DNA of 41,078 bases from Candidatus Eiseniibacteriota bacterium. Its GTDB lineage: Bacteria; Arandabacterota; Arandabacteria; Arandabacterales; Arandabacteraceae. The first letter of the stretch is position 1, and the number at the start of each line of letters is the position of its first letter. The DNA lies in the NCBI GenBank assembly GCA_043810925.1, contig JBDRNT010000038.1:1-41078 (forward strand), given 5' to 3'. Made by a program: the position numbers and the translations under genes. This document shows, in pieces, positions 6,398 through 40,944 of the stretch. The notes under the pieces were generated by a model, which saw only the letters and a list, made by a program, of their open reading frames with translations, ran no database searches and was not told where the DNA came from.

Positions 6398-8251
6398 ATG
6401 GGGTTCATCAAGACGATTCTCAAGTTTGGTGCCGCTCCGGCCGCATTCCTAGGCCTCCTTGTCGGTTTCGAACTTGCCGGAGTCAACTACGTCTGGGAAG
6501 TGCCGCGTGATCTTTTCTTCCTGCTTTTCTGGTCGGTGCTACTGTTCGCTTTGGTGGGGTTCATACTGGGGACAATCGGCGCAGTCCTGGGTGCCCTGAG
6601 AAGCCTCGGTACGGGTGGACTGGCTTTTCTCATTGTCACAATCTCAGCAGGCGTTTTCATTTTCGCTGACAGGTTTGCGGCATGCTACCACTGTCACCAG
6701 TTTCTTGATCACCGTGCACCCCACCTGATATACCATCCGTTTAAGAGTTTCATGTTGGCGGCGGCGGTTGCACTGGCCTCGGCGGCTGCAGGCGCCCTGG
6801 CAGGTCTCATCGCGCTTGTGATTGTCCGCAGGTGGTCTTCGCGCAAGGTCAGGATAGGCTTCTTCGGAGCCGTGGCCGCCGTAGCCATAGTAAGTTGTGT
6901 CTGGAGTTATCTATCCGTTCCCACACGGGGCGTGGCAGCATATGCCGATCCAAAGACCGGTGCCCCCGAGCGGATTGGCGGTATCGATAAGGTTCTTCTC
7001 ATCATTGACGACGGCGTTACATGGGATATCATCGATCCCCTGATGCGTGAGGGAAGACTCCCCGCATACCGCAGGCTCACGAAAGAAGGTACGAGGGCGG
7101 ACCTGGCAACGCTTTCGCCGACCGTTTCCCCCCCTGTTTGGACCACGCTGGCCACAGGACACTCACCTGAGCGGCACGCCGTCGGCGGCTTCATCAATTA
7201 CGCGTTCCCCGGTATGAAGAACGGCATAGCCAAGTTTCCGTGCCCGACGCGGATGATGCTGCCCGACATCTTCATAAAACTTCATGCCCGAGGCTTCGGA
7301 AGTTCGCGCCCGCTCGGCCCGAGTCATCGGAGAGTTAGGGCTGTCTGGAACATAGCCGGCGACGCCGGCGCGGATGTGGGAATAGTGGGGTGGCGGTATA
7401 CCTGGCCGGTGGAAGGAGTCCGTGGGTTCATGGTTTCCGACCGGCTTCACGCCGATGAACCAAGAGATCATGTCCACCCTCCCGAGCTGGCCTCCTATAT
7501 CTCCGACATTACCGGCGGGCTTCCCGAACCCAGCCTGTCAAGGTTCATAGGCTGCCCGGCAGAGAGTCTCGAGGCATACCCGAAAGCGAGCGACAGGATC
7601 AACATGCTCAAGTGGCATCTCAAATCGGACCTCAGGTACCAGGCCGTAGCGGAGAGCCTGTTCGGCACGATGCACGCAAGTCTTATGGCCATGGGACTTA
7701 CAAGCATAGACGCGATTGAACATCTTTTCTACTACGAGCACTCCCTGAAGCGTCATCCGGAGGAGTATCCCATGACCGACTACCTGTCGAGATTTACGTC
7801 GGAACCTCTGGTCAAGTGGCTGGGTGACACGATAGAAAACACCTATGTCTTCCACGACAGTCTGATGGGGTTCTGGATGGACTGGTTGGGTGACGACTAC
7901 GCCCTTATCATTGCGTCCGATCATGGTCACGCTATGGACGGGGATGCACATCATTATCCTGAGTCCGGCATCCTGATTCTGTGGGGTAGGCCTTTCAGAC
8001 AGGGTGTGACTCTGACGGAGGCGTCGGTCTATGACATTGCCCCCACGGTCCTCTACCTGCTGGGCCTGCCGATTGGTGAGGACATGCCGGGAAGGGTTCT
8101 AACGGAAGCTTTCCGCGACACCTGGCTTGCACGCCACTCGATTGCGACAATCGAGACCTACGAGATCGGGCGGCTTCATGCAGGCAAAGCTCCCCCTGAG
8201 GTCGATGACCAGCTCCTGGACAGGCTCAAGGCGCTGGGATATATAAACTAA
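6398..8251 (+). CDS. membrane-anchored alkaline-phosphatase-superfamily protein (type I phosphodiesterase / nucleotide pyrophosphatase-like)
   Basis: About 5 N-terminal TM helices with a CYHCHQFLDHRAPH loop. It then has LIIDDGVTWD...PTVSPPVWTTLATGHSPERHAVGGF and ASDHGHAMDG, which match the PF01663-type metal-site pattern. It is paralogous to the central domain of the 17237-20080 protein. Confidence 0.75.
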   Translation: MGFIKTILKFGAAPAAFLGLLVGFELAGVNYVWEVPRDLFFLLFWSVLLFALVGFILGTIGAVLGALRSLGTGGLAFLIVTISAGVFIFADRFAACYHCHQFLDHRAPHLIYHPFKSFMLAAAVALASAAAGALAGLIALVIVRRWSSRKVRIGFFGAVAAVAIVSCVWSYLSVPTRGVAAYADPKTGAPERIGGIDKVLLIIDDGVTWDIIDPLMREGRLPAYRRLTKEGTRADLATLSPTVSPPVWTTLATGHSPERHAVGGFINYAFPGMKNGIAKFPCPTRMMLPDIFIKLHARGFGSSRPLGPSHRRVRAVWNIAGDAGADVGIVGWRYTWPVEGVRGFMVSDRLHADEPRDHVHPPELASYISDITGGLPEPSLSRFIGCPAESLEAYPKASDRINMLKWHLKSDLRYQAVAESLFGTMHASLMAMGLTSIDAIEHLFYYEHSLKRHPEEYPMTDYLSRFTSEPLVKWLGDTIENTYVFHDSLMGFWMDWLGDDYALIIASDHGHAMDGDAHHYPESGILILWGRPFRQGVTLTEASVYDIAPTVLYLLGLPIGEDMPGRVLTEAFRDTWLARHSIATIETYEIGRLHAGKAPPEVDDQLLDRLKALGYIN

Positions 8252-17236: not shown

Positions 17237-20080
17237 TCATCTCAGTGTCTCGATGAGTGCTCTTGCCTGGTCATTCGCCGGATCGATCTTTAGAATGGCC
17301 TCGAGCTCCTTACGGCCCTTCTCCTCGTCCCCATTGGCAAGGTAGAGATTGACGAGATCGAATCTGGCCGGAAGATAGTGTGCATCGATCCTTATGGCTT
17401 CCTTGAAGTGTTTCTCCGAAGCCTTGAAATCCCCGAGCTGACGGTTCAGTATACCCAGGTTGATGTGCACCATGTGCACTTCATGCTCGTAGCCAAGACC
17501 CTCTTCGAGCTCGCGCTTGGCATCTTCGAATTGCCCGCCGCTTGCCAGAATGACCGCGAGACTTGTACGGGCGGGATTGAAACCGGGGTGTATCTTAAGA
17601 GCTTCCCGGTAACACTCGATCGCCTTATCGTTGTCACGCAGGCCCTGATACACCTTTCCAAGGCTGTGCCATCCCTGCAGGCTCAAGGGGTTTATCTCAA
17701 GCGCGGTCTCGAGCTGGGTCTTTGCCGGATTGAATGCGCCTCTGCGGATGTACTCGCCGGCCAGATTGATCCTTGATTCATCATAATCCGGTCTGAGCTC
17801 AACCGATCGCTTGAAAGCGGATAGGGCCTGGTCATGGGACCCCTGCTGGTGGGACACAACCCCCAGATTGAAATAGGCCTCGGCATTTCGTGGGTCCTTC
17901 GCAATGATCTCTCGCGACACTCTGGTTGCATCCGAAAGCCTCCCCAGGTTTATATAGGAGATCGCAAGCATGTTCTGTGCATCTAGAAAGTTCGGATCCT
18001 TCTCAATGGCTTCCTTGAGAACGCTAACAGCCTCTTCCGGCTCACCCTTGTGCACCAATGCATCAGCGATTGATGTCATCACGGTAGCGTTGTCGGGGTC
18101 CTGTGACAGCACTTCCCTCCAGATCTCGATGGCCTTGTCGAACTCAGCGTTTGCGAAGTGGGATGAAGCCAATCTCATCAGGCCGGTTGATCCACTGCCA
18201 CTCCCGCCGATGTAGCCCAGTGCTCTTAAGCGTTCAAGAATCGCCTCTTGTTCGTCCTCGCGTCTGATGACTGATCCGGTGGCTGCCATCGTTCCGTATG
18301 AGTCTATCTCTCCGATTCCGGATGTCGATGCAACCCAGCCTTCATCCAGGGCCTCCTCAAGAATTCTGCCCGGCATGTCGGTGGATGCCGGCAGCCCAAG
18401 GAGTCTCAAGAGGGTGGGGGCGACATCCAGCACCGATGCGTCCGTGAACCTTACACCCCGCTTGATTCTGTTACCGTAGAGCGCAATCGCACCGGCCAGT
18501 CTGTGCCACTTTATCGGCTGACCTCCGCCGATTGCAGAAGGTCCCGCTGGGCGGATATCCCCGCTCTTAAATCCATGATCCGATAGAAGAACGAGCGTGG
18601 TCTCGTCGTCTATGGTGTCAAGCCACTCGCCGATCAGGCTATCCGTGTGGAGGTAGGCCGCCGCCACGGCATGGCCGTATTTCGCAGCGTCCTCATCTGA
18701 GATGTCACTCGTGTGTGGCTCCATATGCTTTATGAAGAGATGGCACACGTTATCGACCATATCGAGATAGACCGAAAAGAGGTCGGGACGGAACTTCTGG
18801 TAGAGATATATGCCTGCTCGCTCATAAGTGATATTGGAGGCTAAGATCAGCCTTAAGTTCCTTATGGGATCAAGCGGATCAAATGTCTTGGCCGTCGGTG
18901 CGATCTCCTCCGGAGTCACATCGATGTATCTCCGGAGTGTCTCGTATGACACGTCCTCATAACCTACTATCATCGGTCTCAGCTCATAGATCAGGCTCTC
19001 GGGAAACGCCAGCCCCGCCACGTCTTCTGTCTCATCGTGAGCACTTTCGTCGTACTCGGCGCTCGTCCAGCGCGGATCGAAGGTGTGAAACACGATTCTG
19101 TCGGATACCATGAACCCTGAGACCGGCTCGGCAGGATAGGTTCCGAGCCACCCTATAAAGCCCGAGGACAGCCCGAACCTCGTTGCGATATTCCAGAGGG
19201 CCGGAACCCTGCGCATGGAACTTGTTATGGGTACGTCTTCACCCGTTGCTTCGTCCTTCTGGAGAAAGTCGATTATGCCGTGGACATGCGGCTCCACACC
19301 TGTGGCCATGGTCGTCCAGATCATTGGGGAAACGAGCGGGTCCATCGAAACAAGATCACCCGTGGCGCCTTCCTGGATAAGCCGTTCAATATTGGGCATG
19401 GGTGTATGCTCTGAGACCTGCTTATAGATCTCCCAGTCGAGCGCATCGCTGCCTATTATGACGACCTTGCCGCCGAGCCGCTCGGCGACCTCGATAATGG
19501 CCGCATCCTGTTCGTCAATGACGAGATCGAGGGACTTAAGCGATACGCTGTGGAGATTGACGCCATAGGTAGCGAGTGACGGCGTCAGCGTCTCGAGCAT
19601 CCCCTGCTCAATCCTCTGGTTATCATCTTCTTTGGAATAGCTGTCAAACACACTGAGATGCCGCCGGAGGTAATCGCTCACCAGCGGGGCGACCAGGTCT
19701 TCCTCATATCTTCCCTGGTAGGATCTATGAAGGGGGCCGACGCGGTCCCGCTCGACGGAAATCTCAAGCACAAGCCCGGCAGCAAGTGTGCCACCGGGGG
19801 TCTGCGATTCCACCTTGATATCTGTGCTGACGGGTTCAACAGGATAGACCGCCGCCCGCTTCCATGGGAGGCGGAGATGAGGTCCAGGCTCAAGGTACTC
19901 CAGTGCCCCGCCGGTCTCAACGACCCCGATCTTCCCACCCGGCACGATCTGGACCGATGCAACAATACCCGCTGCAACTGCAAGAGCCACCACGGCCAGA
20001 ATGCCCATCTTGCGTCCTGAATCTCTCAGAATCTCACCCTCCCGAGGAAGTGCGTCCTCATCATTATAGTCAATGCTCAC
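17237..20080 (-). CDS. multidomain membrane protein: SPFH/band-7-like, then alkaline-phosphatase-superfamily phosphodiesterase-like, then TPR repeats
   Basis: N-terminal TM helix plus a VVETGG...PGPHLRLPW SPFH-like segment. The central domain is paralogous to 6398-8251 (GFMVSDR, SDHGF, LLGLP..DMPGR..EEA, RLRALGYI). The C-terminus has at least 10 TPR motifs. The start codon is uncertain: AGGAGG abuts the GTG. Confidence 0.75.
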   Translation of the reverse strand: MSIDYNDEDALPREGEILRDSGRKMGILAVVALAVAAGIVASVQIVPGGKIGVVETGGALEYLEPGPHLRLPWKRAAVYPVEPVSTDIKVESQTPGGTLAAGLVLEISVERDRVGPLHRSYQGRYEEDLVAPLVSDYLRRHLSVFDSYSKEDDNQRIEQGMLETLTPSLATYGVNLHSVSLKSLDLVIDEQDAAIIEVAERLGGKVVIIGSDALDWEIYKQVSEHTPMPNIERLIQEGATGDLVSMDPLVSPMIWTTMATGVEPHVHGIIDFLQKDEATGEDVPITSSMRRVPALWNIATRFGLSSGFIGWLGTYPAEPVSGFMVSDRIVFHTFDPRWTSAEYDESAHDETEDVAGLAFPESLIYELRPMIVGYEDVSYETLRRYIDVTPEEIAPTAKTFDPLDPIRNLRLILASNITYERAGIYLYQKFRPDLFSVYLDMVDNVCHLFIKHMEPHTSDISDEDAAKYGHAVAAAYLHTDSLIGEWLDTIDDETTLVLLSDHGFKSGDIRPAGPSAIGGGQPIKWHRLAGAIALYGNRIKRGVRFTDASVLDVAPTLLRLLGLPASTDMPGRILEEALDEGWVASTSGIGEIDSYGTMAATGSVIRREDEQEAILERLRALGYIGGSGSGSTGLMRLASSHFANAEFDKAIEIWREVLSQDPDNATVMTSIADALVHKGEPEEAVSVLKEAIEKDPNFLDAQNMLAISYINLGRLSDATRVSREIIAKDPRNAEAYFNLGVVSHQQGSHDQALSAFKRSVELRPDYDESRINLAGEYIRRGAFNPAKTQLETALEINPLSLQGWHSLGKVYQGLRDNDKAIECYREALKIHPGFNPARTSLAVILASGGQFEDAKRELEEGLGYEHEVHMVHINLGILNRQLGDFKASEKHFKEAIRIDAHYLPARFDLVNLYLANGDEEKGRKELEAILKIDPANDQARALIETLR

Positions 20081-20316: not shown

Positions 20317-21552
20317 ATGACTATGAGACAGTACATACGCGCCGCCACAGTGGCGGTGATCGCGGTTCTTCTACTTGTTCCTATTGCCGCCCGATGCCAG
20401 GGGAATCTTGAGATTCACTGCATTGACGTCGGTCAGGGTGACTGCACCCTTGTAATCTCGCCCACCGGCGGGACGCTGCTCTTTGACGCGGGCTGGAACG
20501 CCATGGGGAATTCGGTTGTAATCCCCTATCTTCAGAGCCTGGGCATTACCGGGCTCGATTATGTCTGTTGCTCCCACTATCATGCCGATCATATCGGCGG
20601 CCTGGACGAAGTGGTCAACTCTCTCGGTATAGACTCGCTGAGGGTGGCGGCGCTTGACCGGGGCTGGTCCTATACAACTCTGACGTACTCGGACTACGCT
20701 GCTGCGGTCGCCCCCAAGCGTACGACCATCTTAGACGGCCAGATTATAGACCTGGGTGGCGGCGTGACGGTCACCTGTATCGGCGTGAACGGAAACGGCG
20801 CGCTCTCACCACCGTTTGCAGGATCGGATGACGAGAATGATTACTGTGTCTCGTTGCTTGTCGAGTACGGGGACTTCGAGTTCTTCGTAGCAGGTGATCT
20901 CTCGGGTGTGAACTCATCGAGTTACACCGACATAGAGACTTCAGTAGCTCTTGAAATCGGCGACCTGGATGTTTACAGGGTGGATCACCACGGGAGTGCA
21001 AGCAACTCGAATGCCAATCTCGTATCGACGTTTCAACCCGAGGTTTCTATAATCTCAGTCGGCAGCAACTCTTATGGTCACCCTACCCAGACCGTGCTCA
21101 ATAGACTGGTCTCCTACGGGAGTTACATCTATCAGACCGAAGTTGGCAGCGGCGGCACCATACCGCCGGGTGAGGGAGAAGTCGTCGGTGGACATGTCGT
21201 CATAGTAGTCGGGGCCGGCCAGTATACGGTGGACGGAGACCCTTATGATCTCGGTTCATCCGGTGTCCGGATTGCCGGCCGTGAGATCTCCCTTAAGGTC
21301 TTCCCCAATCCCTTTACCAGTCAGACTACATTCGGATTCAGCGTGCCCGAGGAAGGTCGTGTCACGCTTGATGTCTTTGACACTACCGGCCGGTTCATTA
21401 ACGGGTTCTCAACTCCGGGATCTGCCAGCTCCTCCGGAACGCTGACCTGGGACGGCCGCACGTTCTCGGGTGAGAGTGTGTCTCCCGGAGTCTATTTCGT
21501 GCGTCTCCGGGGTGCATCCGCGGTGACGGCTCACAAGGTCGTAAAGAGGTAA
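20317..21552 (+). CDS. secreted MBL-fold (ComEC-C-terminal-like) hydrolase with T9SS-type C-terminal sorting domain
   Basis: Signal peptide. Motifs IDVGQGDCTLV and HYHADHIGG. C-terminal FPNPFTSQT...VTLDVFDTTGR...WDGR...GVYFVRL...KVVKR, which is FlgD-Ig / T9SS CTD-like. Confidence 0.8.
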   Translation: MTMRQYIRAATVAVIAVLLLVPIAARCQGNLEIHCIDVGQGDCTLVISPTGGTLLFDAGWNAMGNSVVIPYLQSLGITGLDYVCCSHYHADHIGGLDEVVNSLGIDSLRVAALDRGWSYTTLTYSDYAAAVAPKRTTILDGQIIDLGGGVTVTCIGVNGNGALSPPFAGSDDENDYCVSLLVEYGDFEFFVAGDLSGVNSSSYTDIETSVALEIGDLDVYRVDHHGSASNSNANLVSTFQPEVSIISVGSNSYGHPTQTVLNRLVSYGSYIYQTEVGSGGTIPPGEGEVVGGHVVIVVGAGQYTVDGDPYDLGSSGVRIAGREISLKVFPNPFTSQTTFGFSVPEEGRVTLDVFDTTGRFINGFSTPGSASSSGTLTWDGRTFSGESVSPGVYFVRLRGASAVTAHKVVKR

Positions 21553-30837: not shown

Positions 30838-30899
30838 AGTGTTCCTCCATTCTTTACTGTGACCGCCACCTTTAGTATCTTACTCTATAGGGGAATGTG

Positions 30900-33107
30900 A
30901 TGAAACCTATTTACCTCGACTACAACGCGACCACGCCGATCGACCGGCGTGTGGCAGATGCGATGTTGCCCTTTATCACCGAACACTTCGGCAACCCTTC
31001 GAGCGGTCACGCCTACGGCGTCGCTACGAGAAAGGCTGTAGAGAAGGCCCGCGGGCAGGTGGCGGGTTTCCTGGGGTGTGAGGTATATGAAGTGGTCTTC
31101 ACAAGCGGCGGTTCAGAGAGCAACAACCACGCGATAAAGGGAGCGGTCCTCGCATATGCCGACAAGGGCAACCACATCATCACCTCAGCGGTTGAACACC
31201 CGGCCGTGATCGAAGTCTGCAGGTATCTGGAAAAGCACCACGCATGTGACGTCACCTATCTTCCCGTTGACGCACATGGTCTGGTGGACCCCAAAGAGGT
31301 TGAAGCTGCGATCACGCCGCGCACTCTGCTAATCACAATCATGCATGCCAATAACGAGGTGGGCACGGTTGAGCCCATAAAGGAAATTGCCTCGATCGCC
31401 CGCGCTCATGATGTTTTCCTCCACACGGATTGTGCGCAGTCTGCGGGGAAGATACCCGTTGACGTGGACGAACTTGGTGTCGACCTGCTTTCGTTGGCGG
31501 GTCACAAGATTTATGCGCCGAAGGGCGTTGGTGCACTTTATGTACGCAGCGGCGTCCGCCTTGAAAAACTGATCCACGGGGCAGCACAGGAGATGAAATG
31601 GCGGGCCGGTACCGAGAATGTGATCGAGATAGTCGGCCTCGGTGAGGCCTGCGACTTGATTGCCGGCGACCTCGACGAACACAGTGACCGGATGAAGCAG
31701 ATGCGTGATCGGCTTGAGAAGGGAATCAAGGACAGGTTTCCGGACATCAGGATCAACGGGCATCCGGAGAAGCGTTTGCCCAATACTCTGAGTGTGAGTT
31801 TCAGGGGGCTTGAGGCCAACACCATTCTCTCGGAACTCTCCGGTGTGGCCGCTTCTGCGGGAGCGGCCTGCCATAGTGACCGGGTGGAGATCTCAGATGT
31901 GCTTGCCGCGATGCGGGTGCCGATGGACTATGCGATGGGGACCATCCGGTTCTCGGTGGGCCGCTTCACGACACCCGACGAAATAGACCGGGCGATTGAG
32001 GAGATCACGAAGGTTGTGGGAGGAATGGCCCGCGGAGAAGCCCTCATCTCAGCCGAGCCGGTCACCGGGAAGGTGAAGCTGACTCAATTTACACACGGGC
32101 TTGGGTGTGCGTGCAAACTCCGGCCACAGGTTCTTGAAAAGATCCTGGCAAAGATACCGGTTTCACATGATGAGAATGTGCTGGTGGGGACGGACACTTC
32201 CGACGATGCGGCCGTCTACCGGATCGATAAGAAGACCGCGATTGTACAGACGGTTGATTTCTTCACGCCGGTCGTCGACGATCCGTTTCAGTTCGGTGCG
32301 ATCGCGGCGGCAAATTCACTTAGCGATATCTATGCGATGGGTGCGAAGCCCCTTTTCGCTTTGAGTGTTGTCGGGTTTCCGAGTAACCGGCTTCCGGTTG
32401 AAGTGCTGGAAGAGATCTTGAGCGGGGCACGATCAAAAGCCGGTGAGGCGGGAATAGACATTATCGGCGGTCACACCGTGGATGACACCGAGCCCAAGTT
32501 CGGTCTGGCGGTCAGCGGTGTCGTCGATCCCGAAAGGATCGTGACCAATCGAGCTGCCAGACCCGGTGACGTCCTCGTTCTGACCAAACCGATTGGGACG
32601 GGCATACTTGCCACGGGTCTCAAACAGGGGCTGCTGGATGCCTGCCAGATCGACACGCTTGTGGAGACCATGGCGACCTTGAACATGCGTGCCGCCGAAG
32701 CGATGCTGGATGTTGGCGTCAACGCCTGCACGGATGTCACCGGTTTCGGCCTCCTGGGGCACCTGCTGGAGATGATGACCGGTTCGGGTACTGCGGCTGT
32801 GTTAGAGGTAAGCAACGTCCGGTTTCTGCCGGGCGCCGTGGAACTCGTCACGTCCGGCGTCATCCCGGGTGGAACGCGCAACAATATGGAGTATACGGCC
32901 CCGTCGGTGAAGTATGCAGACGGGGTCCCCGAGATCAAGCGCGTGCTCTTAAACGACGCCCAGACCTCGGGTGGGCTTCTGATATCGCTCCCGGCCAAAC
33001 AGGTTGAGGCCTTGATGGATCGGCTCCGCGAAAAGGGTGTGGAAGGGGCAAGTGTGGTGGGCAGGGTTGTTACGGGAGGCGGCCCGAAGATCACGGTCGA
33101 AAGGTAG
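30900..33107 (+). CDS. selD: fusion protein: cysteine desulfurase/selenocysteine lyase (NifS-like) joined to selenophosphate synthetase (SelD)
   Basis: Residues 1-~385 carry SLAGHKIYAPKG (PLP Lys) and SAGAACHSD (active-site Cys). From about residue 395 the sequence KVKLTQFTHGLGCACKLRPQVLEKIL...VLVGTDTSDDAAVYRI matches the E. coli SelD N-terminus ([20 protein letters not shown]). There is no stop between the two domains. Ribosome-binding site AGGGGA. Confidence 0.85.
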   Translation: MKPIYLDYNATTPIDRRVADAMLPFITEHFGNPSSGHAYGVATRKAVEKARGQVAGFLGCEVYEVVFTSGGSESNNHAIKGAVLAYADKGNHIITSAVEHPAVIEVCRYLEKHHACDVTYLPVDAHGLVDPKEVEAAITPRTLLITIMHANNEVGTVEPIKEIASIARAHDVFLHTDCAQSAGKIPVDVDELGVDLLSLAGHKIYAPKGVGALYVRSGVRLEKLIHGAAQEMKWRAGTENVIEIVGLGEACDLIAGDLDEHSDRMKQMRDRLEKGIKDRFPDIRINGHPEKRLPNTLSVSFRGLEANTILSELSGVAASAGAACHSDRVEISDVLAAMRVPMDYAMGTIRFSVGRFTTPDEIDRAIEEITKVVGGMARGEALISAEPVTGKVKLTQFTHGLGCACKLRPQVLEKILAKIPVSHDENVLVGTDTSDDAAVYRIDKKTAIVQTVDFFTPVVDDPFQFGAIAAANSLSDIYAMGAKPLFALSVVGFPSNRLPVEVLEEILSGARSKAGEAGIDIIGGHTVDDTEPKFGLAVSGVVDPERIVTNRAARPGDVLVLTKPIGTGILATGLKQGLLDACQIDTLVETMATLNMRAAEAMLDVGVNACTDVTGFGLLGHLLEMMTGSGTAAVLEVSNVRFLPGAVELVTSGVIPGGTRNNMEYTAPSVKYADGVPEIKRVLLNDAQTSGGLLISLPAKQVEALMDRLREKGVEGASVVGRVVTGGGPKITVER

Positions 33108-34898: not shown

Positions 34899-35050
34899 CG
34901 GGGGATCCAGCCATTTTGCGAACCTGCTCACATATGGCACTATCCCACACAAAGCCAACTTTCCCGTTGCAAGTCGGCCCGAAAAATGGTAACATTAATG
35001 GTAACTATTAAGTAAGCAGTGGATCATTTTGCTTCGGAAGGAGGCAGCCT

Positions 35051-36184
35051 ATGCGTATAGGCATCATTATGGGTCTGGCGGCGCTACTGCTCCTGGCCCT
35101 ACCCGTTCTGGCAGTACAGCGTGCGGTCCTCATCGAGGACTTCACGAACTCTGGGTGACCTGGCTGTGACGCCATCAAAGATGAGATGAACGTTATCTTT
35201 GATGAGTATCCGGGGCAGGTTGTCCCGATTCGAATTCACACCTGGTGGCCAAGTTCTGTCGATCAGTTCTTTGTTTTCGCGTACCCGGAAGACTCCCTGC
35301 GGGTAAGGTTCTACGGCGGGCTTACTCCGTGGACTGCGTATTACTACACACCCAGTTTCCGGTTTGACGGCAAGTATGTCTCGGACCCATCGGATAGTAC
35401 AAGTACTGGGGGCGATATGTGGCCGACGTATGCTTCCTGGTACGCCCGGACCCGAGAGGTAATCGACAGTCTTCTCACCGTTCCGAGTCCGCTGAGGATA
35501 AGCGTCACACGGAATTGCTTCAGTCCTGACAGTGATTCAGTCTACGTGGATTTCGATGTTGTCGCCGAGGATGACGCCGACTACAATCAGAATCTGTATC
35601 TCGCGGTGACCGAGTGGAGGCATCGATATACTTTCCCGACCGGAACGCACGATCACGCCCTGAGAGACTATGTTCCGGATCAGGACGGTATGGCAATAGG
35701 CCCGATGCTTTCCGGTGACTCACTCCACTTCGAGTGGGACTACATCGTCTACCCGGAGTACTGGCATGCAGCGAGTGGTACCTCACGCGTGAATACCAAC
35801 CTCTTCGTCCAGCGAGCGGGTACGAGAAAGGTCCAGCAAGCGTGGACCGGACATCCGGGAGAGTTTGAAGACCCGGTTTCCGGTGTCGCCATTCCCCGTT
35901 TGGCAGACGCGATCTGGCTGGGCAAGAACTCGCCTAATCCATTCAGCGAGCAGACGAGTATAGCGTACAACGTCAGGCGTGCCGGACATGTTCGTCTGTC
36001 GGTCTATACGCTTGAAGGAAGGCTTGTGGCTGATCTCGTCGACGGCCAGGTTGACCCCGGCTCTTATGCAGCTGATTGGGATGGTCGAGACCGCTTCGGA
36101 CACGAAGTCGGAAGCGGGGTCTATTATTTCAGTCTGAAGCAAGACAAGTCTGCCCAAACAGGTAAGATGATCGTACTTCGCTAG
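35051..36184 (+). CDS. candidate selenoprotein: exported thioredoxin-fold protein (U-P-G-C) with T9SS-type C-terminal domain; in-frame TGA at 35156-35158 read as Sec
   Basis: ATG 35051 is preceded by GGAAGGAGG. It encodes signal peptide MRIGIIMGLAALLLLALPVLA and runs to TGA in the same frame as the 35186 ORF. The context EDFTNSG-U-PGCDAIKDEMNVIFDEYPGQ is thioredoxin-like. The C-terminus LGKNSPNPF...WDGRDRFGHEVGSGVYYFSL...MIVLR is a T9SS CTD. Confidence 0.5.
35173..35204 (+). promoter_or_regulatory. stem-loop 14 nt downstream of the in-frame UGA (candidate bacterial SECIS)
   Basis: Perfect 10-bp inverted repeat CATCAAAGAT (35173-35182) / ATCTTTGATG (35195-35204). It extends by a G-U and an A-U pair to give an 8-nt apical loop GAUGAACG. 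Confidence 0.4.
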
Positions 36185-36195
36185 GAAAGAAGAAA

Positions 36196-36230
36196 AGAGC
36201 TGGGGGCCAGGGGTCTCCAGCTCTTTCTAT
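36196..36230 (+). terminator. candidate intrinsic terminator after the 35051-36184 gene
   Basis: AGAGCTGG (36196-36203) / CCAGCTCT (36217-36224) form an 8-bp stem with a 13-nt loop, followed by TTTCTAT. Confidence 0.45.
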
Positions 36231-36367
36231 ACCTTGCGGAACGGGCCCGGTACGGCTTAGGACAGGGACAGGCATTTAGGTGGTTGGCGTGGACGCCACA
36301 AGGTCTTATACTTAGGGTAATGGGTAGATTGGAAGACACAGTGAAAGCAAGACTCTTACCTGCGCAT

Positions 36368-36886
36368 ATGGCCGCCATGGGCTTTGTCGTATTGCTCATG
36401 GTTGCGGCCGCGGTCTCGCCGTTAAGAGCGGGACCGGCCCCCGACTTCACGCTTCCCAACATCGATGGAAAGGATGTCACGCTTTCCGAGGCGTTGTCGG
36501 AGGGTCCGGTGATCATCGACTTCTGGGCGACATGGTGTAAGCCCTGCATCAAAGGGTTCCCGAGTCTCCAGGGGATTTATGACAAGTACCGCGAGCGTGG
36601 ACTCAGGGTGTTTGCAATCTCTGTTGACAGTCCCCGGTCGCGGGCGCGTGTAGGTCCGCTGATTCGATCGAAGAAGTACACCTTCGAAGTTCTTCTGGAC
36701 ACGCAGGGCCGCGTCGCCAAGAAGTATAACGCGGTCGCACTTCCACGGACGGTGCTCCTTAATACTGACGGCGAGATCGTGCTTGCGACGGTGGGTTACC
36801 GGCCGTCAAATCATGAAAAGCTCGAAGAAGCACTGCTGCCAATCCTGCAAGCCAAGGCCGGCGAGGATACCAAAGGTGCCGACTGA
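36368..36886 (+). CDS. TlpA/ResA-like thiol:disulfide oxidoreductase (thioredoxin fold, WCKPC), membrane-anchored or exported
   Basis: VIIDFWATWCKPCIKGFPSLQGIYDKY and VFAISVDS motifs. N-terminal hydrophobic anchor MAAMGFVVLLMVAAAV. The start is uncertain: GTG 36341 and TTG 36284 are alternatives. Confidence 0.8.
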   Translation: MAAMGFVVLLMVAAAVSPLRAGPAPDFTLPNIDGKDVTLSEALSEGPVIIDFWATWCKPCIKGFPSLQGIYDKYRERGLRVFAISVDSPRSRARVGPLIRSKKYTFEVLLDTQGRVAKKYNAVALPRTVLLNTDGEIVLATVGYRPSNHEKLEEALLPILQAKAGEDTKGAD

Positions 36887-38360
36887 TCGTTTTCTCCCCA
36901 CGGTATGTCTGGTCATTGTTATAGCGGCGGTATCTGTCGTATGGACCAGTCCGGTTGGTGCCCTTGAGACGGGTGCGAGGGGCGCAGTATCAGGTGAAGG
37001 TCTCCTCAACACCGATGAGGGGGCGAGAGTTGTCGATGCGAGAGTCGACTTCGATATAGATGTAGACTTCCTGACCTTCGGAGGGGCCTACCGGTTCTAT
37101 GATTTCGGAAACAAGAACTACAACCCTGCGGGCATAGATGCCGTCGATCATCTGAAGCACCGGTACTTAGCGGGCGAGATCCGCGGCCTCTTCTTCAGGG
37201 CGGGTCACTTCTTCTCGACCTTCGGCAGGGGACTCACGCTGAGGAGTTTCGAAGATCCCGGTCTTGAACACGATACATCACTCGACGGCATCATAGCGGA
37301 GTACGAGACCGGACCCGTGAGAGTCACCGGGCTTACCGGTATGATAACCGAGCGGCTGACGGGCCTGCAATCCCGGGAGCACAATGTGCGGGGTGGAAGA
37401 GCCCGGGCCGGTGTCGGTGACATACTTGCTGTTGCGGTAAGCGGTCTCGACCGGAGCACAAAGAGACGAGATGAACAGGTAGTTTTGCCCGATAGTCTTA
37501 CGAGCTTCAGCGACAACGTGATTGGGGCCGAAGTCGAGGTCTGGCATGGGCCGCTGTCGCTGGTCGGTGAATATGCCCGAAGAGACGGTGACTACTATCA
37601 CGGACTCGAGCAAGACGGTGAAGGCGGCAGCGCAACATATCTCTCCGGGAGTCTGGCTACGAACCTGCTCACGCTGCTTGGGGAATACAAGGACTATGAC
37701 AGGTTTGAAAATACACTGGTGAATCCCCCCATCTGTGTCAAGGAACACGTGTGGATTTTGATGAACAGGGTGACGCACCAGGTCAGCTTTGATAACGAAA
37801 GAGGGTTTCTGCTTGAGGGCACGCTTTCTGCGAGCGAGAACGTACAGCTTACCGGTGGAGCCTCTGAAGCTCGGACCCAGGGAGGCAGTCTCGGACACTG
37901 GGAGATCTTCGGCCAGGTCGATCAGCCGCTTCCGGGTTGGGGGATCAGATCGTTTGCCGGATCGTGGTCGAGGGAATACCTGTACGGCAAGTTCACCGAA
38001 AACATCAGTTGTGGGCTCGATCTCGAGATTTCATTGCCCTCCCAACACGTGGTGGAGGTGGGGATCGAGGCACAGACAATAAAGGAGCCTTCACTGGACT
38101 CGCATGAGAATTACATGGCATCGGCTGCGCTTTATCCCTGGCCGAGCGTGACGCTTGCCGCCACTGGAGAGCTGACCACCGAGGAAGGGCTCGAACGCGA
38201 CAAGTGGCTCTTCGGTGAGGCCAGGGTATCGGTAGGGGGAGATTTCGAGGTATCTCTTGGTGCCGGGAGCGAACGTGGCGGTAAGAAGTGTAGCGGTGGC
38301 ATTTGCTACACGGAACCTGAGTTCGCAGGCGTTAGACTGCGCTTCTCGGCCTTCTTCTAG
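36876..38360 (+). CDS. putative outer-membrane beta-barrel protein
   Basis: Signal-like N-terminus FLPTVCLVIVIAAVSVVW. Alternating beta-strand pattern. The C-terminus ends ...VRLRFSAFF with an aromatic final residue. A GTG start at 36876 after GAGGA overlaps the TlpA-like stop, which suggests translational coupling. Confidence 0.5.
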   Translation: MPTDRFLPTVCLVIVIAAVSVVWTSPVGALETGARGAVSGEGLLNTDEGARVVDARVDFDIDVDFLTFGGAYRFYDFGNKNYNPAGIDAVDHLKHRYLAGEIRGLFFRAGHFFSTFGRGLTLRSFEDPGLEHDTSLDGIIAEYETGPVRVTGLTGMITERLTGLQSREHNVRGGRARAGVGDILAVAVSGLDRSTKRRDEQVVLPDSLTSFSDNVIGAEVEVWHGPLSLVGEYARRDGDYYHGLEQDGEGGSATYLSGSLATNLLTLLGEYKDYDRFENTLVNPPICVKEHVWILMNRVTHQVSFDNERGFLLEGTLSASENVQLTGGASEARTQGGSLGHWEIFGQVDQPLPGWGIRSFAGSWSREYLYGKFTENISCGLDLEISLPSQHVVEVGIEAQTIKEPSLDSHENYMASAALYPWPSVTLAATGELTTEEGLERDKWLFGEARVSVGGDFEVSLGAGSERGGKKCSGGICYTEPEFAGVRLRFSAFF

Positions 38361-38428
38361 GGGCCCGGAATAATGGCGGCTACCGGATGGAGTTTGATGC
38401 ATCGTAATGAAAGAGGGATAGAAGGGTG

Positions 38429-39481
38429 ATGAAAGTACTCAGATTGGTGCTGGTTGCGGCGGTTTGCATTCCTGCCGCGTGTGACTGGTTCGAGGAGCCG
38501 GTCGAGGCCAATCTACACCCGGAAACGAGATTCCTTGCATGCGCCTCCGGCTTGGAGGTGTTTGAGGGTGATGACGTGAGGTTTGAGTGGGTGGGTAGTG
38601 ACGTGGACGGCACGGTAAACCGTTATGAGTGCGCTTACGATGGCTCACCATGGACATCCACTGCCGGGCTGGATACCATCATCTCAGATGTAACACTGGG
38701 CGAACACACCTTGCGGGTGAGATCTGTTGACGACCACGGGGATGTGGATCCCACACCGGCTGAATGCAGTTTCACTGTGACTGAACCCGGAAGCTCTGTC
38801 GATAGAGTCGTCCATCTGGAGCTCTTCACCGCGACCTGGTGCAGGTTCTGCCCCAAGGCGGAAATCGCCCTGAATAGCCTGCTTGATGAGTATGGTCCGG
38901 ACAGGCTCAGCGTTATCGCTTTCCACGGTACGCCGGACCGGGATCCGTTTGCCACTGAAGAAACAGAGGCACGAATCATCTGGCATTTCAGCGATCCCAG
39001 CTTCCCGGGCGATCGAGACGTAATCCCGACGGTTGTCATCGACGGGCTGAGATATGTGCAAGGGGCGGCCACGGCCGAAGAGGCTGAGGCCTACTACCGG
39101 GCGGAGATCGAGTTGCGTATGGCACTCGGATCGCCGCTTTCGATCAGGACGGTGGGAGAGATAGGGTCGAGCACAGGATTGGTGAGCGCCGTGGTAAAGG
39201 TCGAGGATCATCTTGAGGAGGGTGATCGCCTGGTCCGCTTTGCAGTGATAGAGGATGACATATTCTACATAGGTCCATACTCGCTTGAGTATGACTTCGT
39301 TTCGCGGGATCTGCCCGCCGATGAGCCCTTTGACCTTGTTGTGGTCGGGGACTCGATGACGGTCGAGAGGCAATTCTCGGTGGACGGATCATGGAACCCT
39401 GAGCACATGGATGTGATTGTATTTGTGCAAGATATGACCACGAGAGAGGTCTTGCAGTCAGCCAGGCTGCGGCGTGAATGA
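38429..39481 (+). CDS. exported Ig-like plus thioredoxin-like (WCRFC) domain protein; Cys-paralog of the 35051-36184 candidate selenoprotein
   Basis: Signal peptide. LELFTATWCRFCPKAEIALNSLLDEYGPDRLSVIAFH aligns with LIEDFTNSGUPGCDAIKDEMNVIFDEYPGQVVPIRIHT. Downstream, SPLSIRTV in this protein matches SPLRISV in the other. Confidence 0.7.
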   Translation: MKVLRLVLVAAVCIPAACDWFEEPVEANLHPETRFLACASGLEVFEGDDVRFEWVGSDVDGTVNRYECAYDGSPWTSTAGLDTIISDVTLGEHTLRVRSVDDHGDVDPTPAECSFTVTEPGSSVDRVVHLELFTATWCRFCPKAEIALNSLLDEYGPDRLSVIAFHGTPDRDPFATEETEARIIWHFSDPSFPGDRDVIPTVVIDGLRYVQGAATAEEAEAYYRAEIELRMALGSPLSIRTVGEIGSSTGLVSAVVKVEDHLEEGDRLVRFAVIEDDIFYIGPYSLEYDFVSRDLPADEPFDLVVVGDSMTVERQFSVDGSWNPEHMDVIVFVQDMTTREVLQSARLRRE

Positions 39482-39567: not shown

Positions 39568-40944
39568 ATGAGACTGGGAGATTCGGGACGGTCTGCAGTG
39601 ATTGCTGCCGGCGTGATGATCGCGCTGATGGCCGGAGCAGCTTCTGAAGCCTTAGCGGTGCGTGATATCGAGATGACCACCGTAGATTACGCGGGCACGA
39701 TGATCTACTGGTTTCCGGTAGTCTTCTACACGGCAATCGAGAACACGGGAACGGAAGGCAGCACGGTTGATCTTCATCTTGAGAAGAACCTGCCTGGTGG
39801 ATGGGCTTCGGACATGTGTATTGACGGCGACTGCATTCCAAATGATGGGTTCCTCTATCTGGCACCGGGAGAAGTGGAGACGGTGTTGGTAGATGTGACT
39901 GTGGGTGGTTCGCAGAATATGGGTCTTGAGACGATGACGGCGACGGTGCGCCAGGAGCCTTCGATAGTCAAGAGCCAGACCTACGCCGCATTTGCCCAGC
40001 TCCCGTCGTTTTTGCTCGTGGATGATGATAACGGTGCCGGCTACGAAACCTATTTGAAAACGGCCATCGAGGCTGCGGGCTACAAGGTGCGTGTCTGGGA
40101 TGCCGACTCACTCGGTAGACCGGGTCCGATACAGCTCCTGTCCTACTGGGGGGTGTTCTGGACAACGGCCGACGGTAATGCCGGTTACATAACCTCGGGT
40201 GACGAGCAGGACATGATGACATATCTTGATAGCGGTGGGAGACTCTTCCTGGCGAGCATGGACCTTCTGAGCAGCCGGGGCGGGGCCACGACTTTTACGA
40301 CCAACTACCTTCATGCCGCATCGTGGATGAATAACACCGGCGCTGCGACCGTATCGGGCATATCCGGTGACCCCATCTCCGACAGTATGGTACTTCCGCT
40401 TACCGCAGGACCGTTTTCGGCGGGTAACACCGACAACATGACCCTTAACTCACCGTCGGATTCGATTTTTGTGGGTGCAACCGGCATAAGCGGGCTCAAG
40501 GTGGAGGAGAGCGCCCACCAGCTCGTCTTCCTGTCCTATCCTTTTGAGGACGTAAGCACGAGCGCACCCGATCCTGATAACCAGGCGACTCTGATATCCC
40601 GTGTGATCGGCTGGTTCGATCCGCCGACAGCCGGGGTGGATAGCAAGCCCGATCTTCCCCAGGATGAACTTGTGCTCGGACAGAACAGTCCGAACCCGTT
40701 TAAGACCTCGACCGGGATCTCGTTCGCTGTTCCGAGGGGAAGCCGGCATACCGAGTTGGTGGTTTACGATGTCAAGGGGCGGGTGGTTAAGACGCTGATT
40801 AACGGTGCACCTTCGGCGGCAGGGAGCCGGATTGCATGGGATGGCAGAGATGATGCCGGAGCACCTGTCGCATCGGGCGTCTATTTCTATAAGATTACAG
40901 CCGACCGGGCCAGCGCCATAAAAAAGATGGTGATGCTGAGATAG
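39568..40944 (+). CDS. secreted protein with T9SS-type C-terminal sorting domain (function unknown)
   Basis: Signal peptide ...AASEALA. C-terminal LGQNSPNPFKTSTGISF...VVYDVKGR...WDGRDDAGAPVASGVYFYKI...MVMLR. Confidence 0.75.
   Translation: MRLGDSGRSAVIAAGVMIALMAGAASEALAVRDIEMTTVDYAGTMIYWFPVVFYTAIENTGTEGSTVDLHLEKNLPGGWASDMCIDGDCIPNDGFLYLAPGEVETVLVDVTVGGSQNMGLETMTATVRQEPSIVKSQTYAAFAQLPSFLLVDDDNGAGYETYLKTAIEAAGYKVRVWDADSLGRPGPIQLLSYWGVFWTTADGNAGYITSGDEQDMMTYLDSGGRLFLASMDLLSSRGGATTFTTNYLHAASWMNNTGAATVSGISGDPISDSMVLPLTAGPFSAGNTDNMTLNSPSDSIFVGATGISGLKVEESAHQLVFLSYPFEDVSTSAPDPDNQATLISRVIGWFDPPTAGVDSKPDLPQDELVLGQNSPNPFKTSTGISFAVPRGSRHTELVVYDVKGRVVKTLINGAPSAAGSRIAWDGRDDAGAPVASGVYFYKITADRASAIKKMVMLR

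Follow-up and report, generated by a model that had tools for sequence, protein, structure and literature searches.

HBP35 of Porphyromonas gingivalis is a type IX secretion system (T9SS) cargo protein that carries a thioredoxin motif (PMC3120885, PMC2907840). Residues C48 and C51 of HBP35 are needed for insulin reduction, and internally initiated cytoplasmic forms of 29 and 27 kDa have been described (PMC2907840). Among proteins that contain selenocysteine (Sec), the hypothetical selenoprotein family GOS_C comes from reads of marine surface water (Zhang & Gladyshev 2008, PMC2398784), and corresponds to NCBIfam NF045500, "Omp28-related selenoprotein" (2026 review, Table 1, PMC13188914). The same review covers Sec-containing oxidoreductases such as DsbA-like and DsbG-like proteins, thiol:disulfide interchange protein and Sec-thioredoxin, exported ones among them, and also catalogues outer-membrane selenoproteins (PMC13188914). 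Here we describe a gene from a 41,078-nucleotide (nt) stretch of DNA of Candidatus Eiseniibacteriota bacterium (contig JBDRNT010000038.1, assembly GCA_043810925.1), which as a whole is referred to as the window. The gene, at 35051-36184 of the forward strand, is very probably a genuine selenoprotein gene that gives one product of 377 residues, with a signal peptide, a thioredoxin fold and a T9SS sorting domain. All features described below lie on the forward strand unless stated otherwise.

The complete gene comprises 377 codons, with Sec as residue 36, and ends at TAG 36182-36184, as indicated by its translation, by Cys orthologs that align with it end to end and by a TGA at the same place in 50 homologous copies. 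A Shine-Dalgarno-like GGAAGGAGG (35036-35044) can be read directly from the sequence, with six nt separating it from the ATG at 35051. The first 21 residues (35051-35113) form a predicted Sec-type signal peptide (Sec here meaning the export pathway), MRIGIIMGLAALLLLALPVLA/VQR, of typical form with an A-x-A site; cleavage is predicted at VLA/VQR, and the layout recurs among homologs. The in-frame TGA at 35156-35158 follows in the context ...IEDFTNSG-TGA-PGCDAIKDEMNVIF..., as the first position of a U-P-G-C motif (35156-35167) where a CxxC motif would have its first Cys, and the same frame stays open from there to the TAG. For this locus, the mechanical list of open reading frames (ORFs) has two entries and no more, 35 aa at 35051-35158 and 332 aa at 35186-36184. 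The public annotation corresponds to the second of them, starting at ATG 35186 (protein P0001 of a Candidatus Eisenbacteria metagenome-assembled genome, MAG, named "FlgD immunoglobulin-like domain containing protein"). Thus, the claims of the initial annotation that a start at 35051 with a ribosome-binding site is in frame with the listed ORF, that it encodes a signal peptide, that ORF callers split the gene at an in-frame TGA and that this TGA takes the place of the first Cys of CxxC all agree with what we found, the last also in the aligned homologs.

The evidence that carries the selenoprotein assignment comes from the homologs. A search with the window protein, in which Cys replaced the stop, returned 72 homologs, and at the DNA level 15 genomic and 29 metagenomic loci (44 in all, L001-L044) were compared together with the window. 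One class of homologs, about 362 aa long, spans the whole query (100%) and has a signal peptide and the motif FTNSG-C-P-G/Y-C; the full-length Cys orthologs among them (within P0008-P0032) are 52-60% identical to the window protein and read FTNSGCPGC. A second class is shorter, about 316-330 aa with 88% query coverage, and starts at the first Met past the TGA position. The codon aligned to 35156-35158 is TGA in 50 of 61 gene copies and TGC or TGT in the other 11, with no other codon or residue in this column, where the initial annotation had asked for Cys or Sec to be looked for. The 50 TGA copies amount to 45 distinct sequences, which come from independent metagenomes and MAGs, reach down to 38% protein identity and keep the frame intact on both sides. 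Upstream of the TGA, 34-35 codons are conserved in frame in nearly all members (Met, hydrophobic core, A-x-A, QRxVxxExFTNxG), and downstream of it xxC...QVVP is kept in frame in the 50 homologous copies. Independent initiation downstream is no explanation for the many TGA copies in which no Met follows shortly behind the TGA; a pattern in which homologs terminate at this column and restart downstream, named beforehand as evidence against a selenoprotein, is not what they show. In two loci, L037 (gene at 380) and L044 (gene at 710), the active site is a variant, EEFVG-x-D-U-R-F-C, with the TGA one codon earlier. Family genes also occur in tandem, in two to three copies (L002, 3481/4744; L023, 1753/3106; L012, 4899/6106/7384; L025, 1946/3106/4421), and in L002 and L023 a Sec copy adjoins a Cys copy within a single genome. 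The Cys copies of such sets have a helix-1/strand-2 segment that is one or two residues longer (ILTEEYDG, FQDLIDQGK) and have no hairpin. Taken together, recoding of UGA at this Sec/Cys column is strongly supported by the comparative evidence.

A SECIS-like (selenocysteine insertion sequence) hairpin lies within the coding region at 35173-35204, as indicated by folding and covariation, starting 14 nt past the UGA and with its apical loop 26 nt past it. The perfect 10-bp hairpin noticed in the initial annotation is indeed present, with 10 Watson-Crick pairs plus a G-U and an A-U pair and an 8-nt loop, GAUGAACG, that contains G and U. Its energy is -15.4 kcal/mol (z = -4.0), a value equalled by none of 200 shuffles. 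In models of the bSECISearch type, the bacterial SECIS is a stem-loop right after the UGA with an apical loop about 16-37 nt from it. The window hairpin and those of its relatives fall inside this range, given that the apical loop starts 25-31 nt past the UGA across the Sec forms. In L037 and L044, with their earlier TGA, the hairpin lies correspondingly further downstream (loop 30-31 nt past the UGA).

Covariation was assessed on 31 distinct TGA-form sequences, aligned with no indels in the stem. In the 11-pair helix, 78% of the cells were paired, compared with 32-52% when the partners were slid by 1-3 columns, and the covariation score was 0.32 against 0.18 in column shuffles (reached in none of 500) and at most 0.19 after sliding. 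For pair 24-43, 17 sequences have A-U, 11 G-C and two G-U, and one has a mismatch. At this pair, the synonymous choice of Lys codon (AAA/AAG) covaries with Phe or Leu (UUU/CUU) in the partner codon, a link that protein constraint by itself hardly accounts for. RNAalifold recovered only five central pairs from the same alignment, because the upper stem shifts register between sequences. When nt +10 to +57 were folded, the 45 Sec forms gave -17.8 ± 3.5 kcal/mol and eight Cys forms -9.0 ± 4.1 kcal/mol (Mann-Whitney p = 6e-5); the sequences are phylogenetically related, so these hairpin statistics are indicative rather than exact. A conserved G in the apical loop is a further feature looked for in a bacterial SECIS; here, the predicted loop has a G in 38 of the 45 Sec forms, including that of the window, and none in seven. 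The hairpin is kept, with compensatory changes, in TGA forms only and is lost in Cys forms.

Three domains follow the signal peptide: a thioredoxin-fold domain of about residues 24-143 (35120-35479), with UxxC at the N-terminus of helix 1 and the invariant Pro101 before strand 3; an Omp28-type beta-sandwich (immunoglobulin-like, Ig-like) domain of about residues 147-268 (35489-35854); and a T9SS type A C-terminal sorting domain of the FlgD-Ig-like kind, about residues 292-377 (35924-36181). Only the last scores above threshold in Pfam and NCBIfam (TIGR04183, 24.5 bits, cut-off 23; FlgD_ig, 27.9 bits, cut-off 27), in line with the sorting domain proposed in the initial annotation, and TIGR04183 is found at E <= 0.01 in all 66 aligned family members. 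The two signals of a T9SS type A cargo, the N-terminal signal peptide as read from the sequence and the TIGR04183 domain, are thus both present. A sequence-profile search of the PDB likewise matched only the C-terminal Ig/T9SS domain, to PorU and FlgD Ig domains. The thioredoxin fold, which Pfam does not detect, emerges from an AlphaFold2 model (pLDDT, predicted local distance difference test, 86.5) of the Cys ortholog P0012, 56% identical to the window protein. This model has a beta-alpha-beta-alpha-beta-beta-alpha core with CxxC at the N-terminus of helix 1 and a cis-Pro loop, with the invariant Pro, before strand 3, followed by the beta-sandwich and the C-terminal Ig-like domain. Its top match in Foldseek is HBP35 (5y1a, E = 3e-12). 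Elsewhere in the window, a protein with a metallo-beta-lactamase fold (20317-21552) carries the same FlgD-Ig/Por_Secre_tail C-terminal domain, and at least three proteins of the 41-kb window share the T9SS sorting signal (the selenoprotein, 20317-21552 and 39568-40944).

Like HBP35, the window protein joins Trx-like, Ig-like and T9SS C-terminal domains, and Sec here replaces the nucleophilic Cys of HBP35. The two differ in that HBP35 has Cys and not Sec, belongs to a different phylum and is only 13-15% identical; it was missed by the PDB sequence-profile search. GOS_C/NF045500 is the nearest described selenoprotein family, and its model is matched by 22 of the 66 members of the family described here. 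The best of them reaches E = 9e-8, and for the window protein the score is 20.6 bits, with a cut-off of 200 bits; judged by these profile scores, it is a remote relative of GOS_C and not a member. Moreover, PMC2398784 and PMC13188914 report no T9SS domain for GOS_C, whereas the present family has one. Omp28 proteins (PF11551, NF033782; 2r2c) and DUF1223/Atu2684 (2axo) have Cys or no active site, are lipoproteins or periplasmic and have no T9SS domain; all scores of the window protein against PF11551 and NF033782 are below the cut-offs. The Sec oxidoreductases reviewed in PMC13188914 share the UxxC at the N-terminus of helix 1, the Sec/Cys pairs and a SECIS hairpin right after the UGA, but they are periplasmic or cytoplasmic single-domain proteins, and none in that list is described with a T9SS sorting domain.

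The present family appears to be missing from the prokaryotic selenoprotein catalogue of Table 1 in PMC13188914, and in full-text literature searches no relevant connection of selenoproteins to T9SS, Omp28 or Eisenbacteria/Eiseniibacteriota turned up. Among 1.84 billion representatives, the family comprises 78 clusters (50% identity) at E <= 1e-3 and 23 at 1e-10, and its named sources are all Eisenbacteria MAGs or unclassified MAGs. It is apparently an undescribed, small selenoprotein family of uncultured Eisenbacteria-like sediment bacteria. The initial annotation had called an exported, surface-directed selenoprotein of this architecture unusual; this is fair, although not in the sense of unprecedented, given the architecture of HBP35, the GOS_C family and the exported selenoproteins already known.

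Other explanations of the in-frame TGA have to be weighed against this evidence. An assembly or sequencing error would mean that the true codon is TGC or TGT, and a recent pseudogene that the gene is dead. TGA is indeed one base away from both Cys codons, but an error would have had to recur in the same column, with the frame intact, in 45 distinct sequences from independent metagenomes and MAGs, and to coincide with a dedicated hairpin. The comparative data effectively refute both the error and the pseudogene, to which we give practically no credit. It has also to be considered that the UGA ends a peptide of 35 residues and that a cytoplasmic protein of 332 aa, without the active site, is made separately from ATG 35186; in a milder version, the shorter product would be made additionally when selenium is scarce. 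NCBI and JGI annotation of P0001 and of many homologs follows this arrangement, and HBP35, for which cytoplasmic forms of 29 and 27 kDa arise by internal initiation (PMC2907840), could be taken as a precedent. However, the PGCDAIKDE codons between the TGA and ATG 35186 show in-frame conservation and homology to the Cys forms, and many homologs have neither a Met nor a start codon there. In addition, a T9SS cargo without a signal peptide would be unable to reach the secretion system, and on the P0012 model its thioredoxin fold would miss strand 1 and the CxxC. Independent downstream initiation was rejected on the in-frame conservation and the start codons absent from many homologs, and two products, in the strict or in the milder version, have only a very slim chance of being the right account.

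The UGA might also be read through without selenium, either by genome-wide reassignment to Trp or Gly or by SECIS-independent insertion of Cys or Trp. UGA reassignment exists in some uncultured bacteria, and neither the window nor 273 kb of related DNA showed the Sec machinery (selA, selB, tRNA-Sec), as selenium-free decoding would allow. Nevertheless, TGA is the ordinary stop for 11 of the 30 window genes and also ends several genes of the family, and genome-wide reassignment was rejected on these grounds. TGA even serves as both internal Sec codon and terminator in L013, L014, L025 (gene 4421) and L002 (gene 3481), which implies context-dependent decoding within one mRNA. Besides the target, a scan of the 41-kb window for other UGA-split genes with redox motifs gave none that was convincing, which leaves one convincing in-frame TGA in 41 kb. 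Opposite the TGA, homologs only ever have Cys, as part of a redox-active CxxC; the TGA comes with a structured element, and SelD is encoded nearby. The gene concerned, 2 kb upstream of the selenoprotein gene at 30897-33107, encodes 736 aa in which a NifS-like cysteine desulfurase is fused to a Cys-type SelD (GLGCACK; Aminotran_5 and AIRS/AIRS_C, with TIGR00476 at 392.8 bits); the selenophosphate synthetase placed at 30900-33107 in the initial annotation is therefore present, not as a plain SelD but as part of this NifS-SelD fusion. On balance, decoding without selenium is very unlikely, and insertion of Sec into a single product remains the reading that we prefer.

Several points weigh against that reading or temper it. 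ARAGORN found no tRNA-Sec in the window and the 44 related loci (273 kb), and selA and selB were not found in the same DNA, where tblastn with E. coli SelA and SelB gave no matches. The adjacency of SelD is supportive only, since it is not specific to Sec forms and SelD also serves selenouridine synthesis. In L001 (1-2166) the same NifS-SelD fusion, followed by a rubrerythrin gene, lies upstream of a cluster with a Cys-form member, so the linkage is not tied to the Sec state. As for the hairpin, seven of the 45 apical loops are without G in the minimum-free-energy fold, an Rfam scan of the window and the 44 loci matched neither a SECIS nor any other family, and its position in coding sequence means that part of the conservation is protein constraint. 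The structure model is that of the 56%-identical Cys ortholog P0012 and not of the window protein itself. Regarding export, no T9SS machinery (PorU/V, SprA, GldK-N) was recognised in general domain scans of the window genes, and no literature was found on T9SS in the Eisenbacteria phylum. Finally, the activity, the substrate and the electron route of the protein are inferred only, and confidence in its specific function is lower than in its status as a selenoprotein gene.

With these points in mind, a sequence of events can be proposed for the selenoprotein. By comparative inference, the ribosome would start at ATG 35051 and insert Sec at UGA 35156-35158, with the mRNA hairpin at 35173-35204 acting as a bacterial SECIS that recruits SelB with Sec-tRNA(Sec); the NifS-SelD fusion could supply the selenophosphate. 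The domain content suggests that the signal peptide would direct the protein to the Sec translocon, and passage of the outer membrane, to the cell surface or into the medium, would be directed by the T9SS type A domain. By analogy with HBP35, the closest structural relative, the mature protein most likely acts as a selenol/thiol-disulfide oxidoreductase at UxxC. More speculatively, electrons may pass from a TlpA-like redoxin through an Omp28-like lipoprotein and a DUF6029 barrel, all encoded next to it, to the Sec enzyme at the surface, and its substrates may be oxidised surface proteins, peroxides, polysulfide, heme or metal(loid)s. Whether these proteins are the first T9SS-cargo selenoproteins, that is, surface or released oxidoreductases at the end of a dedicated envelope-spanning reducing pathway, working on extracellular substrates in Eisenbacteria-like bacteria of anoxic sediments, is doubtful on present evidence, and we offer it as a tentative proposal.

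Nearly all TGA-form relatives have been deposited as pieces of about 320 aa, named FlgD Ig-like or hypothetical, which lack the signal peptide and the active site. If the proposal is true, selenocysteine on or outside the cell surface by way of T9SS would widen the range of places for bacterial selenium chemistry. The conserved operon and the HBP35-like fold allow a concrete hypothesis to be framed about a redox system outside the cytoplasm, and the tandem Sec and Cys copies of L002 and L023 provide a direct comparison of what Sec adds over Cys. The theme itself, a thioredoxin fold with UxxC, is familiar; the destination is uncommon, and the family is phylogenetically restricted and has a conserved partner operon.

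The selenoprotein gene heads a cluster of envelope-protein genes that is kept in most of the loci whose length allows it to be seen and that contains one to three tandem copies of family genes. The next gene, in 24 loci, encodes a membrane-anchored TlpA/ResA-like redoxin (36284-36886; FWATWCKPC; Pfam AhpC-TSA and Redoxin). It is followed by a DUF6029 protein that is likely an outer-membrane beta-barrel (36783-38360), as suggested by Pfam DUF6029, the C-terminal Phe signature (...RFSAFF) and synteny. The redoxin and DUF6029 ORFs as listed overlap by about 100 nt (36783-36886). The DUF6029 homology begins only at residue 24-56 of its ORF, so translation of this gene probably begins at a GTG or TTG around 36876, and for the redoxin an internal Met (36320 or 36368) is the probable start.

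The fourth gene of the cluster (38426-39481) encodes a Cys-type Omp28-like lipoprotein with a lipobox-like N-terminus and the motif FTATWCRFCP, assigned by synteny and by matches to NF045500 (62.2 bits) and NF033782 (42.8 bits), both under the cut-offs. The initial annotation had regarded this protein (38429-39481) as a paralog with Cys at the position of Sec. Its CxxC does align on the UxxC of the selenoprotein, but with 24% identity and a pairwise E of 0.038 it is only a distant paralog. The last conserved gene of the cluster (39568-40944) encodes a protein of 458 aa which, on domain scans and synteny, has a signal peptide, an unassigned central domain and a T9SS C-terminal domain. Neither CcdA nor DsbD is encoded adjacent to the cluster, and Pfam scans of the cluster flanks in L001, L006 and L013 gave unrelated genes only.

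Just past the stop codon of the selenoprotein gene, a strong hairpin followed by UUUCU occupies 38 nt (36191-36228; -26 kcal/mol, z = -3.8). This stem-loop is probably an intrinsic terminator between the selenoprotein and redoxin genes, and a consensus terminator scan made no call at 36191-36228. A hairpin at this place suggests that the selenoprotein gene may have a transcript of its own.

Upstream of the cluster, genes for rubrerythrin and an O-methyltransferase are often found, as is NifS-SelD in the window and in L001, and the flanks beyond are variable. Between the O-methyltransferase and selenoprotein genes of L006 (3739-5817), and in several relatives, there is a gene for an alpha-amylase fused to CpeT/CpcT (DUF1001), an odd combination outside cyanobacteria. 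The window itself contains a further unusual fusion on the reverse strand (17237-20080), a protein of 947 aa that combines an SPFH/Band 7 domain with a type I phosphodiesterase/nucleotide pyrophosphatase and a long TPR array, and a second protein with a phosphodiesterase domain is encoded at 6398-8251.

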